NCBI GenBank assembly: GCA_964551375.1
Contig: CAZKBG010000001.1
Location: forward strand, 747,329-779,328
Direction of reading: 5' to 3'
From: an uncultured archaeon
GTDB lineage: Archaea; Iainarchaeota; Iainarchaeia; Iainarchaeales; JAAZKV01
DNA length: 32,000 nucleotides
Shown here: positions 972-27,077 of the stretch, piece by piece
How positions within the stretch are numbered: the stretch's first letter is position 1
Layout of the letters: every line of letters starts with the position of its first letter
Made by a program: the position numbers and the translations under genes
Notes under the pieces: generated by a model
What the model was told of the DNA's origin: nothing
What the model saw: the letters and a program-made list of their open reading frames with translations, nothing else
The model's database searches: none

Positions 972-2057
972 ATGATATCAGCAAAAGAAGCTAAAATGGA
1001 CATAAAAGAATTTTTGAAAACCAAGGTTCCTGAAATAGAAAATGAAATAGAAAAATTCATCCCAAGAAAGCCCACAAAAAAATGGATTGAAAGCGCGCTT
1101 GGAAAAACAGTGTTTGAACTTGACTTAATCGCCTATGAAAAAGGAGTAAACGAGCCTATTTGGGAGCTTTTAGACCGAGGGGGAAAAAGATTTCGCCCGG
1201 TAATGACCTGCCTTGTTGCAGAAGCAGTTGGCGGAAAATACGAAGACGCGCTAAAACTTGCTCCAATGGTAGAAATAATTCACAACGGGACTTTAATGCA
1301 GGATGATGTGGAAGACGATTCGCAGGCAAGAAGAGGAAAACCCTGCACTCATAAAGTATACGGCGTAGACACAGCAGTAAACACAGGAACAATAATGTAC
1401 TTTTGGCCGATGGTAAAAATACTAACCGACGAGTACAAACTCGGCGACAAAAAAAGACTTCAAATTTATGACATATTCCTTCGCGAACTATTAAGAGTAT
1501 GTTCTGGGCAAGCATGGGATATAGCATGGCACCACGGAGGATTCACTCCAAACGAAGCAGAGTATCTAAACATGTGCCTAAGCAAAACTGGGGTTCTTAC
1601 AAGATTTGCGTGCCAGCTGGGGGCAATAAGCGGAGGAGCGACTAAGGAACAATTTGACGCTCTTGGAGACTTTGGGCAGATAGTTGGAGTAGGATTTCAA
1701 ATCCAAGATGATATACTTGAATTAACCGAAGATAAATTCAAAGAAGGGAAAGGAAGCATCGGCGGAGATATTCATGAAGGCAAGAGAACGCTCATAGTTA
1801 TTAGAACTATTGACAAAGCAAATGCAAAAGACAGAGCGCGCCTTGTGGAAATACTTGATTCCCACACGCTGGACCCAAAAGTAATACAAGAAGCGCTTGA
1901 CATCATAAACAAATACGATGGAATAGCATATGCAAAAAAAAGAGCGGAAGAATTAGTTCTTGACGCGTGGAAAAGAGCGGACAAGGTTCTAAAAGACAGC
2001 AACGCAAAATCTCTTTTGAAGAAATTTGCAGAGTTTTTAGTAGACAGAAAAATTTGA
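972..2057 (+). CDS. idsA: trans-prenyl diphosphate synthase (GGPP synthase-like)
   Basis: 361 aa. First Asp-rich motif is LMQDDVEDD followed by RRGKP; second Asp-rich motif is FQIQDDILE. A G-rich site (GGGGG) lies 9 nt upstream. Product chain length cannot be inferred. Confidence 0.85.
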   Translation: MISAKEAKMDIKEFLKTKVPEIENEIEKFIPRKPTKKWIESALGKTVFELDLIAYEKGVNEPIWELLDRGGKRFRPVMTCLVAEAVGGKYEDALKLAPMVEIIHNGTLMQDDVEDDSQARRGKPCTHKVYGVDTAVNTGTIMYFWPMVKILTDEYKLGDKKRLQIYDIFLRELLRVCSGQAWDIAWHHGGFTPNEAEYLNMCLSKTGVLTRFACQLGAISGGATKEQFDALGDFGQIVGVGFQIQDDILELTEDKFKEGKGSIGGDIHEGKRTLIVIRTIDKANAKDRARLVEILDSHTLDPKVIQEALDIINKYDGIAYAKKRAEELVLDAWKRADKVLKDSNAKSLLKKFAEFLVDRKI

Positions 2058-2090
2058 AATGAATTAAATTAATTATTTGGAGGGACAATT

Positions 2091-3149
2091 ATGGCTAAAG
2101 CAAAATTATCAGCAACTGAGAATCGAAAAAAAGAACACCTTGAGCTTTGCGCAAAAAAAGATGTCGGTTTTCACAATAAAACTACTCTTCTTGAAGCGGT
2201 AGAGCTTGACTACAAATGCCTCCCTGAAATAAGCATGAGCGAAGTGAACTTATCAACAGAATTTTTAGGAAAAAAATTCGCATTCCCTTTCATGGTGAGC
2301 GCAATGACGGGCGGAGCGCAGATAGCAAAAAAAGTAAATTTAGAAATTGCAGCAGCATGCCAGGAAATGGGGATAGGAATGGGCTTAGGAAGCATGAGAG
2401 CAATGCTCCAACAACCATCACTCGCAGAAACTTATTATGTTAGAGACGCAGCACCGGATATTTTTGTAGCAGGAAATATTGGCGCAGCTCAATTAAAGCA
2501 ATATAATCCAGACCAGTTAAATGAAGCCCTTGAAGCAGTGGGCGCAGATGCACTTGCAATACACATGAATGCCGCACAGGAAGCAGTTCAGCCAGAAGGA
2601 GACGCAGATTTTTCAGCGCTGATAGTAAAAGTCGCTGAATTTGCAAATGAAATTAATGTTCCAGTTTATGTAAAAGAAGTAGGGCACGGCGTATCATATG
2701 ACGTTGCATTTGCTTTGAAAGGAACAAACATACGCGCAATTGATGTTCAAGGAGCCGGCGGAACAAGCTGGACCGCAGTTGACGCGCTTCGCCACAAAGA
2801 AGGATTTGGATTGGCATTTAGAGAATTTGGAATACCCACCGCAGTATCAGTAATTGGAGTGAAATCAGCGCTCTACGGAACAGACAAAAAGATAATTGCT
2901 TCAGGCGGAATAAGAACCGGACTTGACGCAGTAAAAGCAATAGTTCTTGGCGCAAATATGACTGCCGCTGCGATGCCGGTGCTTCAAGCTCAGCAGAAAA
3001 AAGGAATTGAAGGAATAATGAATTACTTAAGCGGACTGCAGAGAGAAATGAATATAACTGCATTTTTGCTTGGTTGCAAGAATATTAAAGAACTTCATGA
3101 AGAGAAACCCCTGCTTTTGGGCAGATTAACTGAATGGCTAAAGCAATAA
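2091..3149 (+). CDS. fni: Type 2 (FMN-dependent) isopentenyl-diphosphate delta-isomerase
   Basis: 352 aa with the hallmark IDI2 motifs NRKKEHLEL, SAMTGG, AAQEAVQPEGD, VKEVGHG, QGAGGTSW and SGGIRTGLD. A GGAGGG ribosome-binding site lies upstream. Confidence 0.93.
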   Translation: MAKAKLSATENRKKEHLELCAKKDVGFHNKTTLLEAVELDYKCLPEISMSEVNLSTEFLGKKFAFPFMVSAMTGGAQIAKKVNLEIAAACQEMGIGMGLGSMRAMLQQPSLAETYYVRDAAPDIFVAGNIGAAQLKQYNPDQLNEALEAVGADALAIHMNAAQEAVQPEGDADFSALIVKVAEFANEINVPVYVKEVGHGVSYDVAFALKGTNIRAIDVQGAGGTSWTAVDALRHKEGFGLAFREFGIPTAVSVIGVKSALYGTDKKIIASGGIRTGLDAVKAIVLGANMTAAAMPVLQAQQKKGIEGIMNYLSGLQREMNITAFLLGCKNIKELHEEKPLLLGRLTEWLKQ

Positions 3150-3174
3150 ATACTAGTTTTGATGTGATGTTCTT

Positions 3175-4983
3175 ATGCAAATTGAACTAGGAAAAGTTAA
3201 ATCAAAGGGACAGGGGACAATAGAATACCTGGTTATCATTGCGGTAGTGATAGTAATAGCGCTTGTTGTAGTTGGAATTATTTCAGGAATTTTTGGGGAC
3301 AGCTCCGCGCAGGTTTTAAGCGGCGGCGAAGCCCTTGGAAACGTATCAAATTCAGCAGGAATTAATATTGTTGATTCAGTTTCAGATCCAAGCGGAAACG
3401 GATTAATCACGCTTCAGAATTTATCCCCTGACACAGTGACTATTTCACAAATCACCACTCCGGAGGGCGGGGGCGGGACATTTAATACAAATGTTACTCC
3501 GGGCGATTCAAGAACGTTTTCACTCAACGATCTTAATGCAAGCTGCTTATGCTCGGCAGGCGAAGTGAGAAAAATATGCAATTTTATTTTTTCAATTACA
3601 ACTGCGTCAGGACTTGAAAAACAAGAAACTGTTTCAGTAACAGTTGACTGCTCAACTCAAAATGTGAATCCAGGAGATAGGGTAATTCCACCTCTTGACT
3701 CAACCGCGCCACAAGTTGCGCTGTCATCTCCAAGCGGAACCATTTTGTACGCAAATCCAATAACATTCACTTACACTGCGACCGACAATACTGCAGTGTC
3801 CAGCTGTTCGCTTCTAATAAACGGGGCAGTTGCCCAAACTGATTCCACAGCTCCGTTTGGTTCATTTACGCAGAGCATGACTCTTGGAAAGTACAATTGG
3901 TCAGTGTCCTGCCAAGATGCAAGAGCAAACACTGCTGTTCCAACAGCGGTTGACTTTAATGTATTTACAGCATTTCCTGTAGATTACTTCTTTTACAAAA
4001 ATTCATGGCCTACTTCTTCAATGACCAAGATTTCTTCAACAACAGGCGCGCTGCTTGCAACATTAAGCACAATGGACGCCGACGCATATCACACATTTTA
4101 CTTAGACTCTGATAGAAATTATTTGTGGGTTCCGCACCAGCACGGAAGCGCGACTCCGCAAGTGCCAAATTTAATAAAGATTGATTCAATATCAACAACA
4201 AAAATAGGGCAGTATTCCTCCCCATGCCCAGACATTTATTCAGGAATAGTTGACGGAAGCGGAAATGTATACCTTGGCGGAGGATGGAATTCAAGAGTAA
4301 TTTGCAAATACGACACTTCAGGAACAAATGTTTCTAACTTTACTCCTGATGCAAATATTACCACAACACTCGGACTCACAATCGACTCAAGCAGCAATTT
4401 ATGGATTTACGACCTTGGCGCAAACGGAACTCCTGCAACAACTACTGTGCAAAAGCTTGATTCTTCAACAGGAACAAAAATCCTTGAATTTGAAACAGAC
4501 TGCAACGCAGCAACATTTGCAATTCCGCTTGACGCATTCAAATTTGATTCACTTGGGCAATTATGGCTTGCGTGCGAAACTCCATCAAAAACATATGTTT
4601 ACAGCTCAACAGGGACAAAGCTTTACGAGTTTAACTTTAAGACATTAAGAATAACTCCTGACCAGTTGGGCAAAGTGTACCTGCTTTCCTCAGATAGAAA
4701 CATAATGAAAGTGGACGCATCAAACTATGCTATTCTTTGGAATAATCCATTAAGTTATGCTGATACAGTGACTCATTTCTTCATACAGCCGACTGAAGAC
4801 AAGGGACAGCTAATTGTCGGAAGACAGAATGCAAGCGGTTACATATCAACTTACGATACTAACACAGGGCTTAATGTGAACAACTGGACAAGCGGAAGCA
4901 CTCAAACAACGGGCTCAATAGCCGCACAAAGCCCTGATCCAAACGGATTCTACCACTGGATGCTTTATTCAGGAAAAAAATAA
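3175..4983 (+). CDS. Class III signal-peptide (archaeal pilin-like) protein with large extracellular Ig-like / beta-propeller-like region
   Basis: The N-terminus is MQIELGKVKSKG|QGTIEYLVIIAVVIVIALVV, i.e. a basic leader, G/Q cleavage context, an invariant E and a hydrophobic helix. An Ig-like segment follows (DSTAPQVALSSP...TATDNTAV). After it come repeated blade-like segments (YLWV, NVYLGGGW, NLWIYD, QLWLAC, KVYLLS). It starts 25 nt after fni. Confidence 0.75.
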   Translation: MQIELGKVKSKGQGTIEYLVIIAVVIVIALVVVGIISGIFGDSSAQVLSGGEALGNVSNSAGINIVDSVSDPSGNGLITLQNLSPDTVTISQITTPEGGGGTFNTNVTPGDSRTFSLNDLNASCLCSAGEVRKICNFIFSITTASGLEKQETVSVTVDCSTQNVNPGDRVIPPLDSTAPQVALSSPSGTILYANPITFTYTATDNTAVSSCSLLINGAVAQTDSTAPFGSFTQSMTLGKYNWSVSCQDARANTAVPTAVDFNVFTAFPVDYFFYKNSWPTSSMTKISSTTGALLATLSTMDADAYHTFYLDSDRNYLWVPHQHGSATPQVPNLIKIDSISTTKIGQYSSPCPDIYSGIVDGSGNVYLGGGWNSRVICKYDTSGTNVSNFTPDANITTTLGLTIDSSSNLWIYDLGANGTPATTTVQKLDSSTGTKILEFETDCNAATFAIPLDAFKFDSLGQLWLACETPSKTYVYSSTGTKLYEFNFKTLRITPDQLGKVYLLSSDRNIMKVDASNYAILWNNPLSYADTVTHFFIQPTEDKGQLIVGRQNASGYISTYDTNTGLNVNNWTSGSTQTTGSIAAQSPDPNGFYHWMLYSGKK

Positions 4984-4990: not shown

Positions 4991-5036
4991 TCGACAATTG
5001 ACGAAGGTCGTTTCGTTTTCTGGATAGGTTTTTATA
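4991..5036 (+). promoter_or_regulatory. Candidate promoter plus upstream operator, copy 1: CAATTGACGA-N15-CTGGATAGGTTTTTATA
   Basis: Near-identical to 9233-9278. The TTTTTATA box at 5029-5036 lies ~125 nt upstream of the gltD-like start. Confidence 0.55.
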
Positions 5037-5159
5037 CTTGTTTTCCCCTAAATTTCGTCTGCCTTTGGTGAGCGGCATTAGCTTAACCTTAGGGCATATG
5101 GGGATTTGAAAAAGTTTAGTAAAAGATAAAGATTTTGGGCAGAAAAATGGTGTTATTAG

Positions 5160-6509
5160 ATGAAAGTTCCTTTACTACCTATAGAAGAAAGAAAGACTAC
5201 TTTTAAGGAAGTTGAAACCGGCTTTACAAAAGAACAGGCATTAGCCGAAGCAGCACGATGTCTCCAATGCCCTGTTCCATCCTGCGTAAAAGGGTGCCCT
5301 GCTGGAGTAAATATTCCTGGATTTATTAAAGCATTTAAAGAGGGAGACATAATCAAAGCAGTTACAATAATTAGAGAAAGAAACTTTTTTCCAAGCATTT
5401 GCGGCAGGATTTGCCAGCATGAAAGACAATGCGAAGGAAACTGCATATTAGCAAAATCAAAAGACGGGCCTGTGACAATAGGCGGAATTGAAAGATTCAT
5501 CGGAGACAATACGCCCTATCCAGCAAGGCACAATTTAGTAGGAAAACACGTTGCAGTAGTAGGCTCTGGGCCAAGCGGACTCGCAGTAGCAGCATACTTA
5601 TCAGTAATTGGAATTCACGTAACAGTTCTTGAAGGGACAAACACATTTGGCGGAGTAATAAAATACGGCGTTCCAGAATTTCGACTCCCAAAAGACATAG
5701 TTGCAAGAGAAATATCAGGGCTGCACGATTTGGGAATTGATTTTGAGCCAAACGCAAAGATAAATGAAGAATCCCTTGAACAGCTTTCAAAAAAATATGA
5801 CGCGGTTTTTATCGGGACAGGCGTTGGAAGATCAAAAGTTCTTGATGTTCCTGGCTCGGGGCTGAAAAACATAATGAGCGCAATGAAATTTTTGGTAAAT
5901 TTAAATCAGAGCGGGCTGACAATGATTTCTCCAGGAGAAAAAGTTGTAGTAATCGGTTCAGGGTATGTGGGAATAGATGCAGCAAGAAGCGGAGTAAGAC
6001 TTGGCGGAGACATAACCTGCTTAACAGTTGAAACTGAAGAAAAATTAAAAGAAAGAATTTCAATCAAAGACTTTGAAGAATCAAAAGAAGAAGGAGTAAA
6101 GTTTATTTTCGGAGTAAAGGTAAAAGAATTTTTGGGGACTGAAAAAGTGGAAAAAGTTGTTTATGAAAACCATGTTCGCGGAGAACTTGAAGCATCAAAA
6201 GTAGTTTTTGCAATCGGACAGGAGCACGATGATGACGATTCATTAAAAGCTCCGCTAAGAACAAACAAAACAGGATGCATTGATGTTAATGAAAACAACC
6301 AGACAATCATTTCAAATGTATTTGCGGCAGGCGACTGCGTTCACGGGCCAAAAACAGTAATACAAGCGGTTGATTCAGGAAGAAAATCAGCCCAGTCAAT
6401 CATTAGGTTCCTAGACAAAAGAATTGCGAACGAAGCAATGGGGATAAAAAACGTTGACGAGCCTGAGAAAGTTATTCCAAAAGTCGACACTACGAATAAA
6501 GATATATAA
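5160..6509 (+). CDS. GltD/NfnB/SudA-family Fe-S flavoprotein pyridine-nucleotide oxidoreductase (glutamate synthase small-subunit-like)
   Basis: 449 aa. N-terminal Cys clusters are CLQCPVPSCVKGCPAG and CGRICQHERQCEGNC. Two dinucleotide-binding motifs follow: VAVVGSGPSGLA and VVVIGSGYVGID. GGTG lies upstream of the ATG. Confidence 0.8.
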   Translation: MKVPLLPIEERKTTFKEVETGFTKEQALAEAARCLQCPVPSCVKGCPAGVNIPGFIKAFKEGDIIKAVTIIRERNFFPSICGRICQHERQCEGNCILAKSKDGPVTIGGIERFIGDNTPYPARHNLVGKHVAVVGSGPSGLAVAAYLSVIGIHVTVLEGTNTFGGVIKYGVPEFRLPKDIVAREISGLHDLGIDFEPNAKINEESLEQLSKKYDAVFIGTGVGRSKVLDVPGSGLKNIMSAMKFLVNLNQSGLTMISPGEKVVVIGSGYVGIDAARSGVRLGGDITCLTVETEEKLKERISIKDFEESKEEGVKFIFGVKVKEFLGTEKVEKVVYENHVRGELEASKVVFAIGQEHDDDDSLKAPLRTNKTGCIDVNENNQTIISNVFAAGDCVHGPKTVIQAVDSGRKSAQSIIRFLDKRIANEAMGIKNVDEPEKVIPKVDTTNKDI

Positions 6510-6552
6510 TTTAATGATTTAATTAAATTAATTTTAATTTGGCGGTGAAATT

Positions 6553-7833
6553 ATGAATAAAGAAGCATTCAAAGATTTTTATAAAAAAAGCGTTAAAGAA
6601 AGACAGGAAATAATTTCACGCGAATTTAATCTGACTGATTCTGAAAAAGCACTTCTCACAAAAGAAGGCCCGCTTCCTTTTGAAACAGCAAACAGAATGA
6701 TTGAGAATGTAATAGGGACATTTCCTCTCCCGCTAGGACTAGCAATGAATTTTACAATTGACGGCAAAGAATATGTAGTTCCATTTGTTCTTGAAGAGCC
6801 AAGCGTAGTGGCTGCCGCAAGCAACGCCGCAAAATTATCTTCAGGATTTCGCACAATAGTTGACGAGCCTGTGATGATAGGGCAGATACAGCTTGTGAAA
6901 TGCAAAAATGCTAAAAGCGGACTTGAAAAAATACTTGCAAAGAAAAAAGAGCTTCTTGATGACTTAAAAATGATTGACTCAATTTTAGTGAAATTCGGCG
7001 GAGGACCGCGCGACTTAATCGGAGAGGTAATTAAAACTCCCCGAGGGGAAATGATAGCACTCCAGCTTCTTGTTGACGTGCGAGACGCAATGGGCGCAAA
7101 TGCAATAAACACAATGGCTGAAAAAATTACGCCAAAACTTGAAGAGCTCAGCGGAGGAGAAGTAAGGCTTAGAATTATTTCAAATCTTGCAGTTCATAGA
7201 AAAGCAAAAGCCACAACTACTTGGACAAGAAAATCCCTTGAAGAAAGCTCAAAAGGGGAAATGAAAGGCGAAGAAATAATTGAAAGAATACTTGACGCAT
7301 ACGAATTCGCATCAGCAACACAATTTCGAAGCGCGACACACAACAAAGGAATAATGAACGGAATAGACTCGCTGACAATTGCAACGGGAAATGACTTTAG
7401 AGCAGTAGAAGCAGGTGCGCACAGCTATGCTGCATACAATCACCCTTATGCCCCTCTTACAAAATATTACAAAGACAAAAACGGCGACTTAGTTGGAGAA
7501 ATAGAAATGCCAATGGTGCTTGCAACAATCGGGGGGACAATGAAATCAAACCCTTTAGCACAGCTTTCACTAAAAATACTTGGCGTAAAATCCTCAAAAG
7601 AACTTGCGAGCGTAGGCGCGGCAGTGGGACTTGCGCAAAACTTAGCAGCGCTAAGAGCACTTGCGACAACAGGAATACAAGCAGGGCACATGAAACTTCA
7701 TTCAAAAAACTTAGCCGTTCAAGCAGGTGCAAAAGGAAGCGAAATAGACATAGTTGCTGCGCGAATGGTTGAAGCAAAAGAAGTTACTCAGACAAATGCT
7801 GAAAAAATACTTGCAGAAATAAGAAAGAAATAA
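6553..7833 (+). CDS. hmgA: HMG-CoA reductase, class II (Pseudomonas mevalonii type)
   Basis: 426 aa. Matches class II HMGR along its length by eye: ENVIGTFPLPLG, EEPSVVAAAS, VDVRDAMGANAINTM, ATHNKGIMNGID, ATGNDFRAVEAGAH, GLAQNLAALRALATTGIQAGHMKLH. No N-terminal membrane domain. A GGCGGTGA ribosome-binding site is present. Confidence 0.92.
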   Translation: MNKEAFKDFYKKSVKERQEIISREFNLTDSEKALLTKEGPLPFETANRMIENVIGTFPLPLGLAMNFTIDGKEYVVPFVLEEPSVVAAASNAAKLSSGFRTIVDEPVMIGQIQLVKCKNAKSGLEKILAKKKELLDDLKMIDSILVKFGGGPRDLIGEVIKTPRGEMIALQLLVDVRDAMGANAINTMAEKITPKLEELSGGEVRLRIISNLAVHRKAKATTTWTRKSLEESSKGEMKGEEIIERILDAYEFASATQFRSATHNKGIMNGIDSLTIATGNDFRAVEAGAHSYAAYNHPYAPLTKYYKDKNGDLVGEIEMPMVLATIGGTMKSNPLAQLSLKILGVKSSKELASVGAAVGLAQNLAALRALATTGIQAGHMKLHSKNLAVQAGAKGSEIDIVAARMVEAKEVTQTNAEKILAEIRKK

Positions 7834-7847
7834 TTGGTTTGGCAGTT

Positions 7848-7858
7848 CTGTTTTTTTT
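7848..7858 (+). terminator. Oligo-T tract (T8) after hmgA, archaeal-type terminator candidate
   Basis: CTGTTTTTTTT lies 15-25 nt after the hmgA stop, at the convergent junction with the minus-strand ZIP gene and overlapping its stop codon. Confidence 0.4.
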
Positions 7859-8597
7859 ATTCTAACGCAAGCATTGCAAACATTATTGCTACTCCAATTA
7901 CAATACAAATGAATTGGATTAACGCGTCTTTTTTTGAAAATCTTACATGTAGTTGAGGCAAAAGATCAGTTCCCGCAAGGTAAAGGAATCCGCCAATAGT
8001 AAATGCAATTAAGTAAGGGGTAAATTCCGCAGTTGAAGAAATTACAAGCGCAAAACCTGCTCCGATAAAAGCAGTAAGCGAAATTAAAAAATTATACAAA
8101 AGCGCTTTTTTCTGGGTAAATCCGCTTTTTAATAGAACCCCAAAATCAGCAATCTCCTGCGGAACTTCATGAAGCAAAATTGCTATTGCTGTCGCAACAC
8201 CAACAGCGGGACTTGCAATAAATGCTCCTGCAAGAATTAAACCGTCAATAAAATTATGCATAGCATCTCCAGCGAGAGCAACATATCCAAAAGAAGGCGT
8301 CTCGCAGACATTGCTATGCTCAACATGATGGCAGTGGTGCCAGTGAATAAATTTTTCAAGAACGAAAAATGCAAGCATTCCAACAAGAATAGTTAAGGAT
8401 ACTTCAAGCGATAATCCATTTTTGCTAAGTTCAGGCAGAAGATGGATAAAAACATCTCCTAAAAGCGCCCCTATTGCAAAAGCAACCATTGCCTCAAGAA
8501 AATGCTCAAGCTTTTTGTGATTGATGCTAAGGGTAAAAACGCCGATTAAAGAAGCAAGTGAAATAACTAATAAGGAAATAAATAATTCAAAAAACAT
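7857..8597 (-). CDS. ZIP-family divalent metal transporter with His-rich loop
   Basis: 246 aa, multi-pass. ZIP signature HEVPQEIADFGVL, a His/Cys-rich loop HWHHCHHVEH, and HNFIDG. ATG start at 8597. Confidence 0.85.
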   Translation of the reverse strand: MFFELFISLLVISLASLIGVFTLSINHKKLEHFLEAMVAFAIGALLGDVFIHLLPELSKNGLSLEVSLTILVGMLAFFVLEKFIHWHHCHHVEHSNVCETPSFGYVALAGDAMHNFIDGLILAGAFIASPAVGVATAIAILLHEVPQEIADFGVLLKSGFTQKKALLYNFLISLTAFIGAGFALVISSTAEFTPYLIAFTIGGFLYLAGTDLLPQLHVRFSKKDALIQFICIVIGVAIMFAMLALE

Positions 8598-8654
8598 TTA
8601 ACACACCAAAACTAACTTTTTGCTTTGCAGCATTACAGCAAGTATTTTTCCAAA

Positions 8655-8736
8655 GTTAATAATTTTAAACCTATTTGTTAATAACATTTGTAGTTTACGC
8701 GGGCTAAGTTATTAAGTCAAATTTAGCTGATTTGAC
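8655..8736. promoter_or_regulatory. Candidate operator sites in the ZIP / nikR divergent intergenic region
   Basis: GTTAATAA occurs at 8655 and 8677, a 22-bp (two-turn) spacing. The second copy is part of the palindrome GTTAATAAC. A perfect 7-bp inverted repeat GTCAAAT-N7-ATTTGAC lies at 8716-8736. GCTGATTT is directly repeated at 8725 and 8737. Confidence 0.3.
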
Positions 8737-8795
8737 TGCTGATTTAGAAGATATTAAAACAGGCAAAAATAAAAAAAGGGTTTTTGGTGATTTTT

Positions 8796-9173: not shown

Positions 9174-9232
9174 GATTAATTCATATTATATTTGTTCAAT
9201 TTTGGATAATTTTTACTAAACATAAATCCTTA

Positions 9233-9278
9233 CGTCAATTGACGATTTGCTTTACGTCTTACTGGAAAGGTTTTTATA
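9233..9278 (+). promoter_or_regulatory. Candidate promoter plus upstream operator, copy 2: CGTCAATTGACG palindrome-N17-CTGGAAAGGTTTTTATA
   Basis: Perfect 12-bp palindrome CGTCAATTGACG at 9233-9244. The TTTTTATA box at 9271-9278 lies ~80 nt upstream of the HMG-CoA synthase start. Near-identical to 4991-5036. Confidence 0.55.
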
Positions 9279-9302
9279 GTCCTGTGATTAGTTAATGTTT
9301 AT

Positions 9303-19029: not shown

Positions 19030-19082
19030 AAAAAGCGGTAAATTGAGTAATGAAATGATATTTTGAAAAAAATGTGGTGTTT

Positions 19083-19475
19083 ATGACAGAACTAAAAGGA
19101 AGAAAAATATTTGGCGGCTCAATCGAAGGAGAAGCGCTTGTAACAACACAAGGGATTTCATTCTTCGGCGGAGTAAATCCTGACAACGGCGTAGTGCAGG
19201 AAAAAGGACACGAACTTGAAGGGCAGAGCATATCAGGAAAAATACTTGTTCTCCCGCAGGGAAAAGGCTCAACAGTAGGAAGCTATGCGATTTACCGAAT
19301 GAAAAAACAAGGAACTGCTCCAAAAGCGATTGTATTAAGCGAATGCGAAGCAATAGTTGCGGTAGGCGCGATAATTTCAGAAATCCCGTGCGTTGACAAG
19401 ATTGATATTTCAAAAATAAAAACAGGGCAAAAGCTGAAAGTAGACGGCGACAAAGGAATAGTTGAACTAAAATAG
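19083..19475 (+). CDS. Aconitase X swivel subunit (DUF126); phosphomevalonate dehydratase small subunit
   Basis: GEALVTTQGISFFGGVNPDNG and GKILVLPQGKGSTVGSY. The ATG at 19083 is preceded by GGTG; the ORF-track GTG at 19074 is also possible. Confidence 0.85.
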   Translation: MTELKGRKIFGGSIEGEALVTTQGISFFGGVNPDNGVVQEKGHELEGQSISGKILVLPQGKGSTVGSYAIYRMKKQGTAPKAIVLSECEAIVAVGAIISEIPCVDKIDISKIKTGQKLKVDGDKGIVELK

Positions 19476-19559: not shown

Positions 19560-20210
19560 ATGTTTGGCAGAAGAGGGCAGGGCACAATAGAATACCTTGT
19601 AATTATTGCAGTTGTGATAGTTTTAGCGCTTGTTGTTTCTTATTTTATGATGGGCTCGCTTGGCTCGGCTTCAGCAGCAGAAAAGGCGAGTCTTAAAGCA
19701 GCTTGGCAGTCAAAAGAAGTGGGAATTGCTGATTTTGCAGTTGATTCAAGCGGAAGCGGAAAAATCGCATTGATGAACAACTCTGGCGAATTTGTGAGAA
19801 TAAAGAAAGTTTATGTTGAAGGAGTGCTTGTTTATGACGGAACGCTTTCACTTGGAAATTTTGACAAATATGTAGTGGGCTCTTTTGCAAGCAATGTCGC
19901 AGCGTGCAGTGCGGACAGAAGATATAGAATAAGAATAGTTTACGAGGCTGAAAGCGGGCTTGAAGATGAAGTGAGCGGAGATTTGTACCCAGAATGCATG
20001 GCAAGCGCATCACAAATAAACACTTTGCTTTTAAGCATCCCAAATATTGACTCAAACATAAATATCGACTTGAATGTATCAACAGGACTTTTAGGACTTG
20101 CAAACTCACAGGCAGTGAATACAAGAAACCTTGACAATATTTCACAAGGCTCATCCCCAGACTCAAATGTAAAATATGACACTAATGTTGTGACATTAAA
20201 TACAGTGTGA
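19560..20210 (+). CDS. Class III signal-peptide (archaeal pilin-like) protein, 216 aa
   Basis: N-terminus MFGRRG|QGTIEYLVIIAVVIVLALVV matches the 3175 ORF at 19 of 20 positions. A TATA-like CTTTTAAATA lies ~40 nt upstream. Its stop is 4 nt before the giant ORF start. Confidence 0.8.
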   Translation: MFGRRGQGTIEYLVIIAVVIVLALVVSYFMMGSLGSASAAEKASLKAAWQSKEVGIADFAVDSSGSGKIALMNNSGEFVRIKKVYVEGVLVYDGTLSLGNFDKYVVGSFASNVAACSADRRYRIRIVYEAESGLEDEVSGDLYPECMASASQINTLLLSIPNIDSNINIDLNVSTGLLGLANSQAVNTRNLDNISQGSSPDSNVKYDTNVVTLNTV

Positions 20211-20214
20211 GTTT

Positions 20215-23200
20215 ATGGGTTATTCTAAATTTTTATTGGCTTTTATATTTATTCTTTTTTTGACAAATGTTTTTTCAGTAGACATTTCCACATGCGCTGA
20301 TTTATACAATATGGCTGAATCTTCAAGCTCATTTACCGTTACAACCAATATTGACTGCGCAGCATATACAGCCGCGGGAGATAAATTTGGAAACGCAATA
20401 AATTTTTACGGAACGCTTGACGGAGGAAACTATACTATAAGCAATATTTATGTAAATGCTCCAGGGGCAGATTATGTCGGAGGAATATTTAGAACAGTAA
20501 ACAGTGTCAGCAATTTAACTCTTCAAAATGTAAAAATATATGCAAGCAACAGAAGCTATGTCGGGGGGCTTGCGGGACAATCAAGCGGAACAATAACAAA
20601 TGTCACAGTAAGAGACTCAAATATTTTTGGAAACAACTTTGCAGGAATAGTTGTGGGAAACTCTTTAGGACAGGTGCTGAATTCGTCAGTTTATGATTCA
20701 AATATTTCCGCAAACCACGCAGTTGGAGGAATGGTCGGCAGAGTATATCATAACATGCTGAATCCAAGAGTAAGCAATGCGATAATCAACGGAGTTGGGG
20801 ATGCTTCAAATGCATATGGAGTGGGGGGAGTTGTTGGAACAATAGACACAACAAATAGAAGAATAGATTTGAATGATTCAGTTGTGTCGCTTGGAAATTT
20901 ATACGGAACATACTTTGTGGGCGGAGCAGTAGGGGTGGCAACATGCTATTACTGCTCAAATCCAGTAACAATGAACCGAATCACAGTTAATGCAAATCAA
21001 ATAACCGGAAATCAATACGTGGGCGGGCTTGCCGGGCACTTTCCATTGCCAATAACAATAACCGATTCAAACGCCACAGTGACTCAAATTACAGGAGACC
21101 GAGCAAATTCAGGCTCAATAGGAGGGCTTGTAGGGTACGCAAATGTTGTGGGGAGCAATTTATCCTTCACAGGAAATATTTCAATAAATTCCTCAGGCAG
21201 CACAACAGGGTATATCGGCGGGCTTGTCGGAAGAATTGATTCAGGCTCAATAAGAAACGCAAAAGCAGATGTAAACATTGACACTACGCTTGGCTCGGTA
21301 ACAATGGATAATGTCGGCGGAATTTTGGGATTTGATAATTCAAATACAACAATTACCGACGCAAACGTAGTCTTTGGCGTAATAAAAGGAAAAAATTCTG
21401 TCGGCGGAATTGCAGGAAATATTACAACTTCAATTGTTCGAACAAGAGTTACCGGAACAACACTTACCGGGGTAGGCGCTGATACTTATTATGGGACTGG
21501 CGGAGTTGCGGGAACTGCAAGAGCCGACAGCAGAAGAATTGATTTGAATGACTCAGTTGTTAACATTACTACTATTAACGGAACAAGATTTACTGGGGGA
21601 ATAGTCGGAGTGGGGTGGTGTTATTACTGCTCTAATCCAACAAATGTTTTCAACTCTTCTTTTACAGGCTCTGCTTTGAACGGTTATCAGTTTGCTGGAG
21701 GAATCGCAGGATATCTACCAAGCGGAACATCCCTAATTTCAAACTCAACGGCAAGAATTCCTCAAATGACTTTTTCAGGCTCTGACCCTTACTATTCAGG
21801 CGGAGTGGGAGGAGCAGTAATTAACATAACTAATTCAAATTTTATTGGAAATATTGACGTAAGCAAATCTTCCAACACAGGAAGCGGATACTTTGGGGGA
21901 ATTGCAGGACAGGCAAATTCAATCTCAGACTCATGGGCTGACACAAATCTTAACTTAATGCTCGGAACATATGCGAGTAATTATGTCGGCGGGCTCGTTG
22001 GAAATTACACAGGAAATATTACTTCCAGCTATGCAAAAGTCCACCATATTTGGGAACCAAGCACTTCAAACGGGACAAACATAGGGGGGCTTGCAGGGCA
22101 GGGGGCTACTGCGGGCGGATACATAATAGACTCAAATGTAACTTTTAATGATATTAACGGAGGAAACAGCGTAGGAGGGCTTGCAGGATATACTCAAGGA
22201 AATATTTTGCGAACAAAAGTAATTGGAAACACTTTAAGCGGAACAGGCGCCGATTCATATTATGGTGTCGGCGGGCTTGTCGGAACAATAAGAGCCGACA
22301 GCGGAAGAGTTGACCTAAATTATGCAAATGTAAATATTACTACAATTAACGGAACAAGATTTACGGGCGGAATTGTGGGAGCTGGATGGTGTTATTACTG
22401 CTCATACACAACAAATGTATTTAACTCAACTTTCACAGGCTCTGCTTTGAACGGTTATCAGTTTGCTGGAGGAATCGCAGGATGGCTTCCAAGCGGCGCA
22501 TCAAAAATATATGATTCAAATGCGCGAATTACAAGAATTTATCTTTCAGGTTCCAACCCATATTATTCAGGAGGAGTTGGCGGACAGGCATATGATATAA
22601 ACAATGCAAATTTTATAGGACTAATTGAGGTCAACAAATCTTCCAACTCAGGAGACGGATACTTTGGAGGACTTGCGGGACACGCAAACAGTATTTCATA
22701 TTCCTGGGCTGACACAAACCTTAACCTTCATCTTGGAGCATATGCGAGTAATTATGTCGGCGGGCTCGTTGGAAATTATACTGGAAACATTGACCACAGC
22801 TGGGTTAGGGTTCATCATATTTTTGAGCCTGCAACAAGCAATGGCGGAAGAGTGGGAGGACTTGCAGGGCAGGGGGCTACTGCGGGCGGATATATTTCTG
22901 ATTCGAACGCCGTGTTTACTGATATTAACGGTGGAAATGATGTTGGAGGGCTTGTTGGTTATGCGCAGGGAAATATTTTAAGAAATAAAGTTACTGGAAC
23001 AAATGTTAGAGGGACTGGTTATTTAGACGGTTATAGTTTGTATGGTGTTGGCGGATTAGTTGGAACAATGCAGGCAGGAGCGCGCTCCGATGTAAATGAT
23101 AATGTTGTTGATTTGAATTCGGTTGTTGCTACAAGTGGTGCCGGCGGACTAGTCGGCTCGCAGTATTGTTACAGCTGTTCTTCAAGCTACTGGATGGGAG

Positions 23201-26199
23201 TAAATAGATCTAAGGCTGATTTGAACTGGCTGATTGGGACTACGCACGTGGGCGGCTTAGTCGGACACATTCCGCTTACAGCAAGTTTTATTGCCGACTC
23301 AAACGCAAGGATTGTAAAAATTTTGGCCACAGGTTCCGACCCATATCACATTGCAGGACTAGCAGGAGCAAATGCAGGAGACATTATCAGGTCAAATTTT
23401 GTTGGAGAAATTGATGTTAGAAAAACAAGCGGAAGCGGAAACAACGGATACATTGCAGGACTTTCAGGGTCAGTTAGAAATATTTATTCCTCATGGGCTG
23501 ATACAAATATTAACATAATGCTTGGAACTTTTTCCACAAACTATGTCGGCGGATTAACAGGATACTATTCAGGAAATATTACTTCAAGCTGGGCAAGGGT
23601 TCACCATATTTGGGAGCCTGCAACAAGTAACGGCGGAAGAGTGGGAGGACTTGCAGGATATGGGGCTACTGCGGGCGGATATATTTCTGATTCGAACGCA
23701 ATGTTTACTGATATTAACGGTGGAAATGATGTCGGAGGGCTTGTTGGTTATGCGCAGGGAAATATTTTGAGAAATAAAGTTACTGGAACAAATGTCCGCG
23801 GCGCAGGACTTGCTGATGGGTACAGTGTATATGGTGTTGGCGGTTTAGTTGGAACTATGCAATCAGGAGCGCGCTCTGATGTAAATGATAATTCAGTTGA
23901 TTTAAATAGTGTCAGCGGAACAACGGGTGTTGGCGGGTTAGTGGGTTCGCAGTATTGTTACAGCTGTTCTTCAAGCTACTGGATGGGAGTAAACCGTTCA
24001 AGCGTTCGGTTAAATTTTTTGTCTGGAACAAATTATATTGGCGGAATTTTTGGGCACGCTCCATTGACAGGGACATTTATTTCTGACTCAAATGCAAGAA
24101 TTCCAAAGATTACTGCTTCAGGAACAGACCCATATCACGTTGGGGGATTATGCGGACAAACAGAAGGAGATGTGATAAGGTCAAACTTTATTGGAGAAAT
24201 TGATATTAGAAAAACAAGCGGGAGCGGGAATAACGGATACATTGCAGGACTATGCGGAGCAGTAAGAAATATTTCTTACTCGTGGGCTGATACAAACATT
24301 AACATTCTACTTGGGGGATATTCAACAAATTATGTCGGCGGATTAACAGGGTGGCTCAGAGGAAATATGACTTACAGCAATGCAATACTTGGGCATATTT
24401 GGGAACCTGCAACTTCAAACGGCGGAAGAGTAGGCGGATTAGTAGGGCAAGTAGCAGTAGCAGGCGCAAGCATTTCAGATTCAAATGTTATTTTTGTTGA
24501 TATTAACGGGGGAAATGATGTTGGGGGGCTTGTTGGTTATGCGCAGGGAAATGTTCTAAGGAGCAAAGTAACTGGAGTAAATGTTCGAGGCACAGGACTT
24601 GAAGATGGTTATAGTTTGTATGGTGTCGGCGGTTTGGTTGGGACTATGCAGTCAGGCGCGCGTTCTGATGTAAATGATTGTTCAGTTGATTTGAATAGTG
24701 TAGTGGGACTTGCAGGAGTTGGAGGAATAGTCGGCTCTCAGTATTGTTATAGTTGTTCTTCAAGCTACTGGATGGGAGTAAATAGAAGCGTTGCAAGAAT
24801 TAATTCATTAATCGGAGCCAAATACACAGGCGGAATTTTTGGGCACGCTCCATTAACAGGAAGTTTTGCAGCAGATTCAAATGCAATAATTACAAGAATT
24901 TACGCGGCGGGGAGCGACACTTATAATATTGGGGGAGTAGTAGGCGCAAACGCAGGAGATGTTATGCGCTCATATTTTATTGGAACAATTGATGTAAGCA
25001 AATCTTCAAACACTGCTAACGGCGGAATTGGAGGAGTTGCAGGGTCAGTGCGAAATGTATACCAATCCTACGCAGACACAAATATTGATTTTACATTAGG
25101 GAATTATTCAGGAAACAGCGTTGGGGGAGTTGCAGGAAGCGCGGTTACAATAAATGACTCCTACGTTAGAGCAGCTTATATTAAATCAACGCGCTCGGGC
25201 TCATATACAGGAGGACTTGTTGGGTACGCTCAAGGAAATATTAATCACTCATACGCGGCAGTTGCCGATGTAAATGGATATTCATCAGTTGGAGGGCTTG
25301 TGGGATACTTTACAAGCTCTTACACGGTTTCAAATTCATTCTTTGTGGGAAAAGCAAAAGCATCAAGCTCGGTTGATAATAATATTTTAGCAGGCGCAAA
25401 CGGAAGCGTATCAAACTGCTACTTTAACAACACAGGCTCAAGCGTTGTTTACAAATTAAATGCGGGCTCAACAACAGAACAAGACCCAAACGCGGGCTCA
25501 TCATTTTTCAAAGGCAATTCTACAAACCCTCCATTTGGAGCGGGAGTAGGCGACTGGAATTTTAGCGGAATATGGTATGTGTGGTCAAACGATTATCCTA
25601 AATTTGTTAAAAAACTGGCTTATTACACAAGCGGAATATTCATTTCTCCAGCAATCAATCTTGGCACCCCAAAAAGATTTGTTTCATTCGACTTCAACGG
25701 CAATTTTCCGAACGGAACAGATGTAAATTTCCAAATAAGAACCGCTGACTCAAACTCAAATCTTTCAAGCGAAGACTGGGTGGGGCCAAATGACAGCACA
25801 AGCGAATATTACAACAGCACAAGCACAAAAGCAATAACAACCGCGCATGATTTTGATTCATGGATGCAATGGAGAGCAAAACTTTATACAAACGACGAAA
25901 TAATCACTCCTACAATTTACTACGCTGATGTAAACACAGTGGGAATAGGAAGCGTAATATGGTATGGACTATCTGACGGGGCGCAGTGGAGCTCGTTTGA
26001 TTATAATGTGGTATCAACAAACGGCGGAAGCGTTGACTGGTTCTACGGGCCGTCAACAACAGGTCCATGGACTGCGACATCAATGCTTCTTAGCGGACAA
26101 AATGTTATAGGGATAAAAGCAGTAGCAAGCGCTTCAATTGACGCAAATACTCCAAATATAAGCCCTGATTTGAACGTGTCTTACTCAAGACAAAACTAA
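20215..26199 (+). CDS. Giant secreted GLUG-motif repeat protein (1994 aa), paralog 1
   Basis: Sec-type signal peptide MGYSKFLLAFIFILFLTNVFSV. N-terminal module I-x-T-C-x-D-L...DC...F-x-G-T-L-D-G-x-x-Y-x-I, then dozens of [YVI]-[VI]-G-G-[LI]-[VA]-G repeats. The C-terminal ~330 aa are non-repetitive (DWNFSGIWYVW...YPKF...WMQWRAKLYTND). N-x-S/T sequons are very dense. No C-terminal TM anchor was seen. Confidence 0.85.
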   Translation: MGYSKFLLAFIFILFLTNVFSVDISTCADLYNMAESSSSFTVTTNIDCAAYTAAGDKFGNAINFYGTLDGGNYTISNIYVNAPGADYVGGIFRTVNSVSNLTLQNVKIYASNRSYVGGLAGQSSGTITNVTVRDSNIFGNNFAGIVVGNSLGQVLNSSVYDSNISANHAVGGMVGRVYHNMLNPRVSNAIINGVGDASNAYGVGGVVGTIDTTNRRIDLNDSVVSLGNLYGTYFVGGAVGVATCYYCSNPVTMNRITVNANQITGNQYVGGLAGHFPLPITITDSNATVTQITGDRANSGSIGGLVGYANVVGSNLSFTGNISINSSGSTTGYIGGLVGRIDSGSIRNAKADVNIDTTLGSVTMDNVGGILGFDNSNTTITDANVVFGVIKGKNSVGGIAGNITTSIVRTRVTGTTLTGVGADTYYGTGGVAGTARADSRRIDLNDSVVNITTINGTRFTGGIVGVGWCYYCSNPTNVFNSSFTGSALNGYQFAGGIAGYLPSGTSLISNSTARIPQMTFSGSDPYYSGGVGGAVINITNSNFIGNIDVSKSSNTGSGYFGGIAGQANSISDSWADTNLNLMLGTYASNYVGGLVGNYTGNITSSYAKVHHIWEPSTSNGTNIGGLAGQGATAGGYIIDSNVTFNDINGGNSVGGLAGYTQGNILRTKVIGNTLSGTGADSYYGVGGLVGTIRADSGRVDLNYANVNITTINGTRFTGGIVGAGWCYYCSYTTNVFNSTFTGSALNGYQFAGGIAGWLPSGASKIYDSNARITRIYLSGSNPYYSGGVGGQAYDINNANFIGLIEVNKSSNSGDGYFGGLAGHANSISYSWADTNLNLHLGAYASNYVGGLVGNYTGNIDHSWVRVHHIFEPATSNGGRVGGLAGQGATAGGYISDSNAVFTDINGGNDVGGLVGYAQGNILRNKVTGTNVRGTGYLDGYSLYGVGGLVGTMQAGARSDVNDNVVDLNSVVATSGAGGLVGSQYCYSCSSSYWMGVNRSKADLNWLIGTTHVGGLVGHIPLTASFIADSNARIVKILATGSDPYHIAGLAGANAGDIIRSNFVGEIDVRKTSGSGNNGYIAGLSGSVRNIYSSWADTNINIMLGTFSTNYVGGLTGYYSGNITSSWARVHHIWEPATSNGGRVGGLAGYGATAGGYISDSNAMFTDINGGNDVGGLVGYAQGNILRNKVTGTNVRGAGLADGYSVYGVGGLVGTMQSGARSDVNDNSVDLNSVSGTTGVGGLVGSQYCYSCSSSYWMGVNRSSVRLNFLSGTNYIGGIFGHAPLTGTFISDSNARIPKITASGTDPYHVGGLCGQTEGDVIRSNFIGEIDIRKTSGSGNNGYIAGLCGAVRNISYSWADTNINILLGGYSTNYVGGLTGWLRGNMTYSNAILGHIWEPATSNGGRVGGLVGQVAVAGASISDSNVIFVDINGGNDVGGLVGYAQGNVLRSKVTGVNVRGTGLEDGYSLYGVGGLVGTMQSGARSDVNDCSVDLNSVVGLAGVGGIVGSQYCYSCSSSYWMGVNRSVARINSLIGAKYTGGIFGHAPLTGSFAADSNAIITRIYAAGSDTYNIGGVVGANAGDVMRSYFIGTIDVSKSSNTANGGIGGVAGSVRNVYQSYADTNIDFTLGNYSGNSVGGVAGSAVTINDSYVRAAYIKSTRSGSYTGGLVGYAQGNINHSYAAVADVNGYSSVGGLVGYFTSSYTVSNSFFVGKAKASSSVDNNILAGANGSVSNCYFNNTGSSVVYKLNAGSTTEQDPNAGSSFFKGNSTNPPFGAGVGDWNFSGIWYVWSNDYPKFVKKLAYYTSGIFISPAINLGTPKRFVSFDFNGNFPNGTDVNFQIRTADSNSNLSSEDWVGPNDSTSEYYNSTSTKAITTAHDFDSWMQWRAKLYTNDEIITPTIYYADVNTVGIGSVIWYGLSDGAQWSSFDYNVVSTNGGSVDWFYGPSTTGPWTATSMLLSGQNVIGIKAVASASIDANTPNISPDLNVSYSRQN
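21259..25100 (+). repeat. Intragenic super-repeat array (~257-263 codons per unit, five to six units)
   Basis: In-frame anchors (AKADVN / SWADTN / SYADTN) lie at 21259, 21931, 22702, 23491, 24280 and 25066. Spacings are 672, 771, 789, 789 and 786 nt. 22843-23006 differs from 23632-23795 at ~7 of 164 nt. 23158-23204 equals 23947-23993 (47 nt identical). 21664-21712 equals 22435-22483 (49 nt identical). Confidence 0.9.
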
Positions 26200-26220
26200 A
26201 TAACTTAATAGACTAAATTT

Positions 26221-26240
26221 AAGGCTTTTTTAGCCTTTTG
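26221..26240 (+). terminator. Short hairpin plus T-rich tail after the giant ORF
   Basis: AAGGCT(26221-26)-TTTTT-AGCCTT(26232-37) followed by TTG, 22 nt after the stop. A TATA-like TTATATAAAA for ipk follows directly. Confidence 0.4.
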
Positions 26241-26264
26241 TTATATAAAATAAGTAGTGAAAAA

Positions 26265-27077
26265 ATGGAAAATTTAATTGTAATAAAACTTGGCGGTTCG
26301 TCAATTACAAAAAAAGCCGAAGGAAAATTTGAAATGAACGAAACTGTTTTAAAAAGCGCAGCAAAACAAATTTCCCAAGCTCTCAAATCCGATAATTCTC
26401 TTAAATTAATTCTTGTGTGCGGAGTGGGACCGTTTGGGCACACAAATGTAGTAAAATACGATTTGAATAATGGGATAAAAACAAGCGCGCAAGAAAAAGG
26501 AGTGGAAGTGACAATTAAGGACTGCAATTTTGTTGCTGAATCAGTTATGGACGCGCTGGAAAACGAAGGACTGAAAACTGAACACGTTCCAGGATATCTT
26601 GTGTGCAAACAAGACGGAAGAAAAGTAATTTCATTTGACGCAGAGCCTTATACTAATGCAGTTGAGAAAGGAATAATTCCAGTAACAACAGGAATAATGG
26701 TAAAAGACAAGTCGCTTAAATGGAGCGTGATGAGCGGAGATGCTGCAATTGCGCAAATTACAATGAGACTCATTCCAAAAAAAGTAGTGATAGGAACAGA
26801 TGTTGACGGAATATTCACAGGCGACCCAAAAGAAGACAAAAAAGCAAAACTAATTGAAGAAATTTCAAATACAAATCTTGAAAGCGTACTAAAAAAAGCG
26901 ACAAACTCAAAAGCAGTGGATGTAACCGGCGGAATGAAAGGAAAACTTGAAAAATTAGCAGAAACACTCAACGGAACAGAATGCCAGATTTTCAATCTTT
27001 TCACTGACGGAAATTTAAAAAAAGCGCTTCTTGGAGAAAAAATGACTTCCACCAAGCTTAAAATTTGGATTAATTAG
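26265..27077 (+). CDS. ipk: Isopentenyl phosphate kinase
   Basis: Amino-acid-kinase fold N-terminus IVIKLGGSSITKK, the IPK-typical GVGPFGHT, and GTDVDGIFTGDP. I prefer the ATG at 26265 (preceded by GTAGTGA, TATA ~20 nt upstream) over the ORF-track TTG at 26238. Confidence 0.88.
   Translation: MENLIVIKLGGSSITKKAEGKFEMNETVLKSAAKQISQALKSDNSLKLILVCGVGPFGHTNVVKYDLNNGIKTSAQEKGVEVTIKDCNFVAESVMDALENEGLKTEHVPGYLVCKQDGRKVISFDAEPYTNAVEKGIIPVTTGIMVKDKSLKWSVMSGDAAIAQITMRLIPKKVVIGTDVDGIFTGDPKEDKKAKLIEEISNTNLESVLKKATNSKAVDVTGGMKGKLEKLAETLNGTECQIFNLFTDGNLKKALLGEKMTSTKLKIWIN

Follow-up and report, generated by a model that had tools for sequence, protein, structure and literature searches.

The 32,000-nucleotide stretch of contig CAZKBG010000001.1 analysed here (the window) carries, between positions 972 and 27077, the mevalonate pathway genes of an archaeon of the Iainarchaeota (Diapherotrites, DPANN). 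From the gene content and the comparison with relatives, it is very likely that this locus represents a vertically inherited mevalonate supercluster that is typical of the lineage. Profile searches against Pfam and NCBIfam allowed each step from acetyl-CoA to a polyprenyl diphosphate to be assigned to a plus-strand gene, and the pathway enzymes all scored at, above or close to the curated family cut-offs. Judged by these genes, the cluster is real, complete and well preserved, looks functional and is ordinary for its lineage. All of the pathway genes named in the original prediction were recovered in, or close to, the places assigned to them. The description of the host as a reduced-genome, symbiont-like archaeon held for its first part: the locus lies on a 946-kb contig of a metagenome-assembled genome (MAG) of 1.09 Mb that is 93% complete.

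Gene content and predicted pathway

The features of the window are collected in Table 1. A whole-genome search for extra copies showed that each pathway gene is present once, with the exception of two tandem mevalonate kinase paralogues (MVK1 and MVK2), for which a single kinase had been predicted. The pathway genes are co-oriented on the plus strand as claimed, but a ZIP transporter gene (7857-8597) on the minus strand interrupts the series. Non-pathway DNA makes up ∼13 kb of the 26-kb span, approximately half, in the form of inserts that had been overlooked: the secreted protein gene, the ZIP and NikR-like genes, three ORFs (open reading frames) that are small or orphan, and the pilin-like and GLUG genes. 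Intergenic gaps and promoter-like elements divide the cluster into at least three putative plus-strand units, namely the trans-polyprenyl diphosphate synthase (IDS) with the type 2 isopentenyl diphosphate (IPP) isomerase (IDI2); an NfnB-like gene with the 3-hydroxy-3-methylglutaryl-CoA (HMG-CoA) reductase (HMGR); and HMG-CoA synthase (HMGCS) through the small AcnX subunit (AcnX-S).

Table 1. Predicted features of the window, ordered by position; bit scores refer to the profile named, followed by its curated cut-off where given.
Feature	Position	Strand	Evidence or remark
ZIP transporter	118-888	-	
trans-Polyprenyl diphosphate synthase (IDS; IdsA/GGPPS-like)	972-2057	+	PF00348, 219 bits
Type 2 IPP isomerase (IDI2)	2091-3149	+	TIGR02151, 373 bits (cut-off 281)
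Secreted protein	3175-4983	+	Archaeal class III signal peptide; inserted between IDI2 and NfnB-like gene
Promoter element, copy 1	4992-5036	+	Near-palindrome CGACAATTGACG ∼30 nt before AGGTTTTTATA; upstream of NfnB-like/HMGR unit
NfnB/GltD-like Fe-S flavoprotein	5160-6509	+	Fer4_20 and Pyr_redox_2
HMG-CoA reductase, class II (HMGR)	6553-7833	+	TIGR00532, 421 bits (cut-off 260)
ZIP metal transporter	7857-8597	-	Divergently transcribed, between HMGR and HMGCS
NikR-like ribbon-helix-helix regulator	8784-9173	+	Between HMGR and HMGCS
Promoter element, copy 2	9233-9278	+	Perfect 12-bp palindrome CGTCAATTGACG ∼30 nt before B recognition element (BRE)/TATA-like box AAAGGTTTTTATA; upstream of HMGCS
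Archaeal HMG-CoA synthase (HMGCS)	9359-10399	+	NF003274, 530 bits; TIGR00748, 494 bits (cut-off 353)
Unknown basic protein, 254 aa	10409-11173	+	Lys/Arg-rich; no Pfam or NCBIfam match
Archaeal acetoacetyl-CoA thiolase	11233-12387	+	NF004720, 527 bits (cut-off 420)
Small basic protein, 80 aa	12411-12653	+	Between thiolase and DUF35; matches no known family
DUF35 scaffold of thiolase/HMGCS complex	12697-13101	+	Zn-ribbon and OB fold; PF01796, 63 bits; PF12172, 28 bits
Unknown protein, 255 aa	13147-13914	+	Lys/Arg-rich; orphan
Mevalonate kinase MVK1	13934-14878	+	TIGR00549, 184 bits (cut-off 163)
Mevalonate kinase MVK2	14907-15836	+	TIGR00549, 221 bits (cut-off 163)
UbiX flavin prenyltransferase	15914-16477	+	Prenyl-FMN for the decarboxylase; NF004685, 207 bits (cut-off 188)
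UbiD-family decarboxylase	16505-17779	+	TIGR00148, 293 bits (cut-off 245)
AcnX large subunit (AcnX-L), phosphomevalonate dehydratase	17842-19029	+	PF04412, 493 bits
AcnX small (swivel) subunit (AcnX-S)	19074-19475	+	PF01989, 121 bits
Pilin-like gene	19560-20210	+	Class III signal peptide
GLUG-repeat surface protein, 1994 aa	20215-26199	+	GLUG motif
Isopentenyl phosphate kinase (IPK)	26238-27077	+	NF040647, 166 bits (cut-off 120)

The flow through the pathway was reconstructed from homology and gene context. Acetyl-CoA would be converted to HMG-CoA by thiolase, HMGCS and the DUF35 protein, and HMG-CoA to mevalonate by the class II reductase. One or both of the MVK paralogues would then produce mevalonate 5-phosphate, from which the two-subunit AcnX, carrying an Fe-S cluster on three conserved cysteines, would form trans-anhydromevalonate phosphate. 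The UbiD-type decarboxylase, with prenyl-FMN made by UbiX, would convert this compound to isopentenyl phosphate. Finally, IPK would yield IPP and IDI2 dimethylallyl diphosphate, and the single trans-prenyl synthase would elongate both for ether lipids.

The archaeal pathway was reportedly worked out in Aeropyrum pernix and Methanosarcina mazei by Hayakawa and colleagues in 2018 and Yoshida and colleagues in 2020. The same set is found in the window, namely MVK, a two-subunit AcnX with three cysteine ligands, a UbiD-type decarboxylase with UbiX, and IPK, and in both cases mevalonate diphosphate decarboxylase (MDD), phosphomevalonate decarboxylase (PMD) and phosphomevalonate kinase (PMK) are missing. 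Unlike in those organisms, a single locus encodes the whole route along with IDI2 and the prenyl synthase, HMGR belongs to class II, MVK is present as two paralogues, and the pathway of the lineage is predicted from its genes. A single-locus template of this kind would be convenient for the heterologous reconstruction of the ATP-saving archaeal route.

Assignment of the lower pathway

The dehydratase subunits provided the closest structural comparison. The best Protein Data Bank (PDB) match of AcnX-L was Thermococcus kodakarensis 7cnr_A, with 337 bits over the full length, against 178 bits for a bacterial hydroxyproline dehydratase (AcnX type I), while AcnX-S matched 7cnr_B (TK1248) at 157 bits. 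Both window subunits are therefore matched in full by the T. kodakarensis AcnX type II (TK1249/TK1248, PDB 7CNR, 7CNS; PMC8184944), with which they share the cysteines of TCTPY, GCPH and D(T/S)C and the glutamate of WSESS. In AcnX-L of the window, C118, C287, C344 and E137 align with these conserved residues, and the three cysteines were invariant in seven Iainarchaeales sequences. The A. pernix dehydratase binds its Fe-S cluster through Cys122, Cys297 and Cys356, and the equivalent cysteines of the T. kodakarensis enzyme do so in the solved structure (PMC10040528). The cysteines are spaced by 169 and 57 residues here versus 175 and 59 in A. pernix. T. kodakarensis belongs to another phylum and its AcnX is a distant homologue, and the activity of the window protein is predicted from sequence.

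The genome encodes one UbiD gene. Searches by tblastn detected homologues with 44-56% identity across phyla. In 69 of the 72 named loci, less than 1.5 kb separates the end of the homologue from AcnX-L downstream of it; these loci cover at least six archaeal phyla including Iainarchaeota, Micrarchaeota, Aenigmatarchaeota, Bathyarchaeia and several Asgard groups. From this adjacency we infer that the UbiD homologue acts as the trans-anhydromevalonate-phosphate decarboxylase (AMPD).

Searches of the genome, at 93% completeness, did not detect MDD, PMD or PMK. A genome-wide search for GHMP-family genes (PF00288) returned the two MVK paralogues and nothing else, and the model of the MDD-like N-terminal domain (PF22700) matched just these two genes, both under its cut-off. 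As neither a GHMP-type decarboxylase nor a phosphomevalonate kinase is present, the Aeropyrum-type (AcnX/UbiD) route through trans-anhydromevalonate phosphate gives the best reading of the locus. The presence of AcnX, UbiD, UbiX and IPK agrees with it, and it is very likely that this route, which had also been proposed originally, is the one encoded.

It was also considered whether UbiD, UbiX and AcnX might serve the metabolism of aromatic acids, hydroxyproline or other compounds, in which case the lower pathway would be incomplete and the precursors would have to be taken from a host. Among solved structures, the UbiD homologue matches a furoate decarboxylase best, and a search of a 5.8-billion-protein collection returned only the generic name "UbiD family decarboxylase" or mis-transferred furandicarboxylate decarboxylase names, with some databases labelling homologues as "2,5-furandicarboxylate decarboxylase". 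However, in Iainarchaeales the three functions are encoded between MVK and IPK, and they adjoin MVK, IPK and IDI2 in several phyla, and AcnX is of the two-subunit type with the 337-bit match to 7cnr. Furthermore, the module alternates with MDD in relatives, apart from four hybrid genomes, which is expected if both do the same job. Such an unrelated role is extremely unlikely.

Several points nevertheless weigh against the favoured reading of the locus. The enzyme activities are all predicted. Adjacency to AcnX is the sole ground for the orthology of the UbiD homologue to the characterised decarboxylases of A. pernix and M. mazei, and its search of the PDB returned no AMPD structure, the best match being HmfF. 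Since the MAG is 93% complete, the missing MDD, PMD and PMK are not an absolute result. The prenyl synthase missed all of the equivalog and chain-length-specific cut-offs, and glycerol-1-phosphate (G1P) dehydrogenase (PF13685) was found neither in the genome itself nor in 33 of 41 relatives, which bears on the extent of lipid autonomy.

Prenyl synthase and lipid precursors

The best NCBIfam match of IDS was IdsA, at 258 bits under a cut-off of 468, and the geranylgeranyl diphosphate (GGPP) synthase model GGPP_syn (NF041003) gave 189 bits under a cut-off of 500. The first DDxxD motif (DDVED) is located at residue 111, and the residues at positions -4 and -5, T and G, are small and non-aromatic. 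This gene was the only trans-IDS found in the genome. The enzyme had been described as GGPP-synthase-like; the assignment as a trans-prenyl synthase (PF00348) stood, but neither the score of a GGPP synthase equivalog nor a bulky residue before DDxxD was observed. The predicted product of this trans-prenyl synthase need not be C20.

Other sites of the genome carry the genes for geranylgeranylglyceryl phosphate synthase (GGGPS), UbiA-type transferases, CarS and geranylgeranyl reductases (GGR), one GGR being located 6.7 kb upstream of the window (C1:740588-741484). The result for G1P dehydrogenase agrees with the loss of this enzyme inferred for the common ancestor of Iainarchaeota and Micrarchaeota (PMC12892359), and because it was not found, the claim of autonomy is limited to the precursors and does not extend to complete lipid synthesis. 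Precursor synthesis itself looks autonomous from the gene complement. It was thought that this would be notable in such a host; it had, however, already been reported, since the pathway or the capacity for lipid synthesis has been described for Diapherotrites (PMC6107057, PMC8407392, PMC7414124), with the mevalonate pathway in 39.7% of Diapherotrites genomes (PMC8407392). The window adds a complete and tidy instance of a known pathway to a lineage from which that pathway was already on record.

Conservation of the cluster in related genomes

The gene order of the cluster was compared across relatives. All ten same-genus clusters that were read across the whole span, from IDS to IPK or the pyruvate:ferredoxin oxidoreductase (POR) genes, share one order as far as each stretch reaches: IDS-IDI2-NfnB-like-HMGR-HMGCS-thiolase-DUF35-MVK-UbiX-UbiD-AcnXL-AcnXS-IPK, where IPK normally follows directly after AcnX-S. 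A second genus of the same family has the order of the window. From HMGR onward, the order is kept in five sampled Iainarchaeales families, either fully or in the part covered by the contig. Among these, the four families other than that of the window present HMGR-HMGCS-thiolase-DUF35-MVK-UbiX-UbiD-AcnXL-AcnXS-IPK, with IDI2 after IPK in three of them. The gene order in Iainarchaeales tracks the order of the pathway.

Clustering was also identified in other phyla. Among 80 named contigs, those of Micrarchaeota, Aenigmatarchaeota and, above all, Asgard archaea carry 8-11 of the 12 pathway functions within ∼20 kb, and share with the window an invariant core of UbiD-AcnXL-AcnXS. The Asgard contigs differ in their order (HMGCS-HMGR-UbiD-AcnX-MVK-IPK-IDI2), in the opposite orientation of UbiX and IDS, and in showing no thiolase or DUF35 match in the locus. 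Synteny of mevalonate genes has been illustrated before (PMC6107057, Fig. 2), and these genes are stated to "usually form gene clusters", the archaeal type being present in most DPANN (PMC11052028). Since the same clustering is common in the genus, in the order and in other phyla, the suggestion that a single-locus arrangement is unusual fails. The accompanying assumption that archaeal mevalonate genes are mostly dispersed is contradicted by the clusters of several phyla and by the two published accounts, and the cluster corrects the idea of general dispersal.

These comparisons also bear on whether the locus could be an organism-specific "pathway island", unusual as had been supposed and recently assembled or horizontally acquired. 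The confinement of all genes to 26 kb, nearly all co-oriented, would fit an island, and lower-pathway modules do move, as indicated by the cassette exchange among relatives described below and by a bacterial-labelled contig with an Asgard-type cluster (L085). This origin is very unlikely in view of the gene order, which is common to all ten same-genus genomes and, from HMGR onward, to the five families in the parts covered. In addition, the GC content is even over the whole locus, the Pfam scan and a tRNA scan of the window detected no integrase and no tRNA at the locus borders, and a tree built from the cluster's own upper-pathway genes groups the window with its genus. A recent transfer of the whole cluster was rejected on the even GC, the shared synteny and the upper-pathway tree. 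Vertical inheritance of a lineage-typical supercluster remains the preferred explanation.

The contig L085 (DATKTW010000113.1) is labelled "Candidatus Nanopelagicaceae bacterium" and carries the cluster HMGR-UbiD-AcnX-MVK-IPK-IDI2. Either the contig was binned wrongly or the cluster was transferred into a bacterium.

Mevalonate kinase paralogues

MVK1 and MVK2 are 33.5% identical. In the MVK tree, MVK2 is nested among the kinases of other Iainarchaeales families and represents the type typical of the order, whereas MVK1 falls into a distinct clade with a long stem that is restricted to the family of the window (14 rows, support 99). Sister genomes vary in their complement, with either paralogue alone or the two together. 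In five of them, all with the AcnX route, no GHMP kinase other than an MVK1-type gene was found, so this gene must serve as mevalonate kinase there. Another relative (G002) has MVK2 only. From this distribution we infer that the two paralogues are interchangeable mevalonate kinases.

The distance between the paralogues could alternatively mean that MVK1 acts on another substrate, such as phosphomevalonate or a different hydroxy-acid, or that it has a regulatory function, and hence that the pathway contains an extra, undescribed step. Consistent with this, the active-site motifs of MVK1 are changed (GEYFSVYG, and PSEIDD..ATYDS instead of PSGIDN..ATYGG), in addition to its low identity and its long-stemmed clade. 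However, MVK1 exceeds the mevalonate-kinase equivalog cut-off and scores far under the PMK models, and the distribution among the five AcnX-route sisters and G002 fits interchangeable isozymes. We consider a divergent function improbable.

The arrival of MVK2 by transfer together with an MDD cassette was rejected, as the tree places MVK2 at the position of vertical inheritance and MVK1 is the odd one. The tandem pair could be a leftover of recombination in the lower module.

Proposed exchange of the lower module among relatives

The lower half of the pathway differed between close relatives. In a sample of 41 genomes of the order, 26 carry AcnX, eight carry an MDD-like gene and none carries both; the seven with neither also lack HMGCS. 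Within the genus of the window, AcnX is present in 18 of 21 sampled species and MDD-PMK in the remaining three (G014, G016 and G021). These three species have MVK-MDD-PMK where the AcnX types carry MVK-UbiX-UbiD-AcnXL-AcnXS-IPK. The G014 cluster reads HMGCS-thiolase-DUF35-slot ORF-MVK2-MDD-PMK-GNAT-POR, and that of AcnX-type sisters ...MVK-UbiX-UbiD-AcnX-IPK-(GNAT)-POR, so the flanks are the same. In G016 the POR flank lies downstream of MVK-MDD-PMK, as in G014; the flanks of MDD-type clusters were read in these two genomes, and G021 is known from a 5.7-kb contig bearing the slot ORF, MVK, MDD and PMK. The MDD and PMK of G014 exceed their equivalog cut-offs.

Classical MVK-MDD-PMK mevalonate operons are known from Gram-positive bacteria and Sulfolobales. 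The same block occupies, in the sister species, the position of MVK-UbiX-UbiD-AcnX-IPK in the window, while the window itself differs from such operons in having neither MDD nor PMK. At least six changes of module type were counted among 22 genomes on the upper-pathway gene tree, which rests on genes of the cluster itself and does not amount to an independent species tree.

Across the phylum sample of 151 genomes, AcnX was detected in 55 and an MDD-like gene in 45, with four genomes carrying both (AcnX only 51, MDD-like only 41). The four belong to one Iainarchaeales family, and the three clusters read have both modules in one cluster: L141 (G066, 5135-12426), L140 (G158) and L142 (G144) carry MVK, an MDD-like gene, UbiX, UbiD, AcnX-L, AcnX-S and IPK on one contig. 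The hybrid MDD-like gene matched TIGR01240 at 337 bits, and PMK had no match in the stretches read. These hybrid clusters may represent an intermediate or dual-route state. Both gene sets on one contig have been reported in Asgard archaea (PMC11052028); a description of in-place exchange in Iainarchaeota was not found in the literature searched.

Taken together, we lean slightly towards the view that the lower mevalonate half of Iainarchaeales behaves as an exchangeable cassette. The original suggestion of a pathway transferable as one unit can be retained for this lower half, which is exchangeable among relatives, but not for the whole pathway. If true, the genomes would represent natural successive states in which the classical route takes over from the ATP-saving archaeal one, and close relatives that differ only in the lower module, together with the hybrids, offer a testable natural system. 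How one route comes to replace another has also been debated with regard to how the haloarchaeal and eukaryote-type routes arose (PMC11052028). This comparative result is more useful than the window itself.

A divergent decarboxylase resembling MvaD/MBD, under all equivalog cut-offs, was located at 7704-8546 of L137 (G028), together with an archaeal IPK and no AcnX; the family of this genome could have a third, haloarchaeal-type lower route within the same order, as far as its gene set indicates. In the MDD-type cluster of another family, L130 (G039) encodes a NUDIX protein between MDD and PMK (16171-16668), with a weak match to IDI1 and a better one to YfcD. IDI2 had no match in the stretch read of L130, and the NUDIX protein may be a putative type 1 isomerase substitute.

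Upper pathway and a possible redox partner

A channelling complex of thiolase, HMGCS and DUF35 was reportedly described in archaea by Voegeli and colleagues in 2018. All three genes are likewise present and close together in the window, but they are not contiguous, as the orphan-like 254-aa gene and the conserved 80-aa gene lie in between. The thiolase scored 480 bits against the acetyl-CoA acetyltransferase model NF053570, under the cut-off of 600. HMGR was present as predicted, although its class had been overlooked: the class I model TIGR00533 gave 43 bits against a cut-off of 442, which assigns the enzyme to class II and not class I.

The NfnB-like protein, which resembles the NfnB/NfnI large subunit, gave its best PDB matches to NfnB 4ylf_B (285 bits) and NfnI 5jca_L, and a genome search found no NfnA-like partner. 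Its gene, which had also been overlooked, lies immediately 5' of HMGR in every same-family genome where this part was read, as well as at three loci from other families. It is not a canonical pathway gene, and its product possibly supplies NADPH. In this scheme, electrons of reduced ferredoxin would pass to NADPH for the class II reductase via the NfnB-like protein, alongside POR. The idea follows from the placement of the gene before HMGR and of the POR genes 3' of the cluster in relatives.

Promoter elements, insertions and flanking genes

A palindromic promoter element precedes both the NfnB-like/HMGR unit and HMGCS. On relaxed inspection of the upstream regions, the palindrome was kept at both positions in nine sister genomes, and a genome-wide search with at most one mismatch returned these two sites only. 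An exact search for the full element across 142 loci gave no match, the criterion being too strict. The palindrome may serve as the operator for a regulator dedicated to the mevalonate genes. Neither Rfam nor tRNA scanning gave any hit in the window.

The insertion slots of the cluster differ among relatives. The ZIP and NikR-like pair in the HMGR-HMGCS gap is confined to one subclade of the genus, and its ZIP gene is one of two ZIP paralogues in the window. The slot between HMGCS and thiolase is occupied by the 254-aa family in six relatives and is empty in three (G001, G005 and G023). For the 254-aa and 255-aa ORFs, tblastn in relatives gave no homologues; a profile of the six relatives linked the former, as a divergent member, to a genus-specific family that evolves fast (hmmsearch, E 3.5e-17), while no relative of the latter was detected, the profile search included. 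The 80-aa gene has homologues of 66-87 aa in the same slot in ten other genus members (11 including the window), with a conserved C-terminal motif, AKKWRE..EPLVKR, and its product could be an accessory of the thiolase/HMGCS/DUF35 complex.

IPK lies within a few hundred bases of AcnX-S in nine of ten sister genomes, where the pilin and GLUG inserts are missing. The pilin/GLUG adhesin cassette (19560-26199) is, by this comparison, an apparent insertion that does not belong to the pathway and cuts IPK off from its operon. Further giant GLUG genes follow IPK (27135-32000 of the window), between IPK and the POR genes. In most same-genus genomes that were read, the latter lie directly or nearly directly 3' of the cluster; in the window's own genome they are located at C1:788536-791664.

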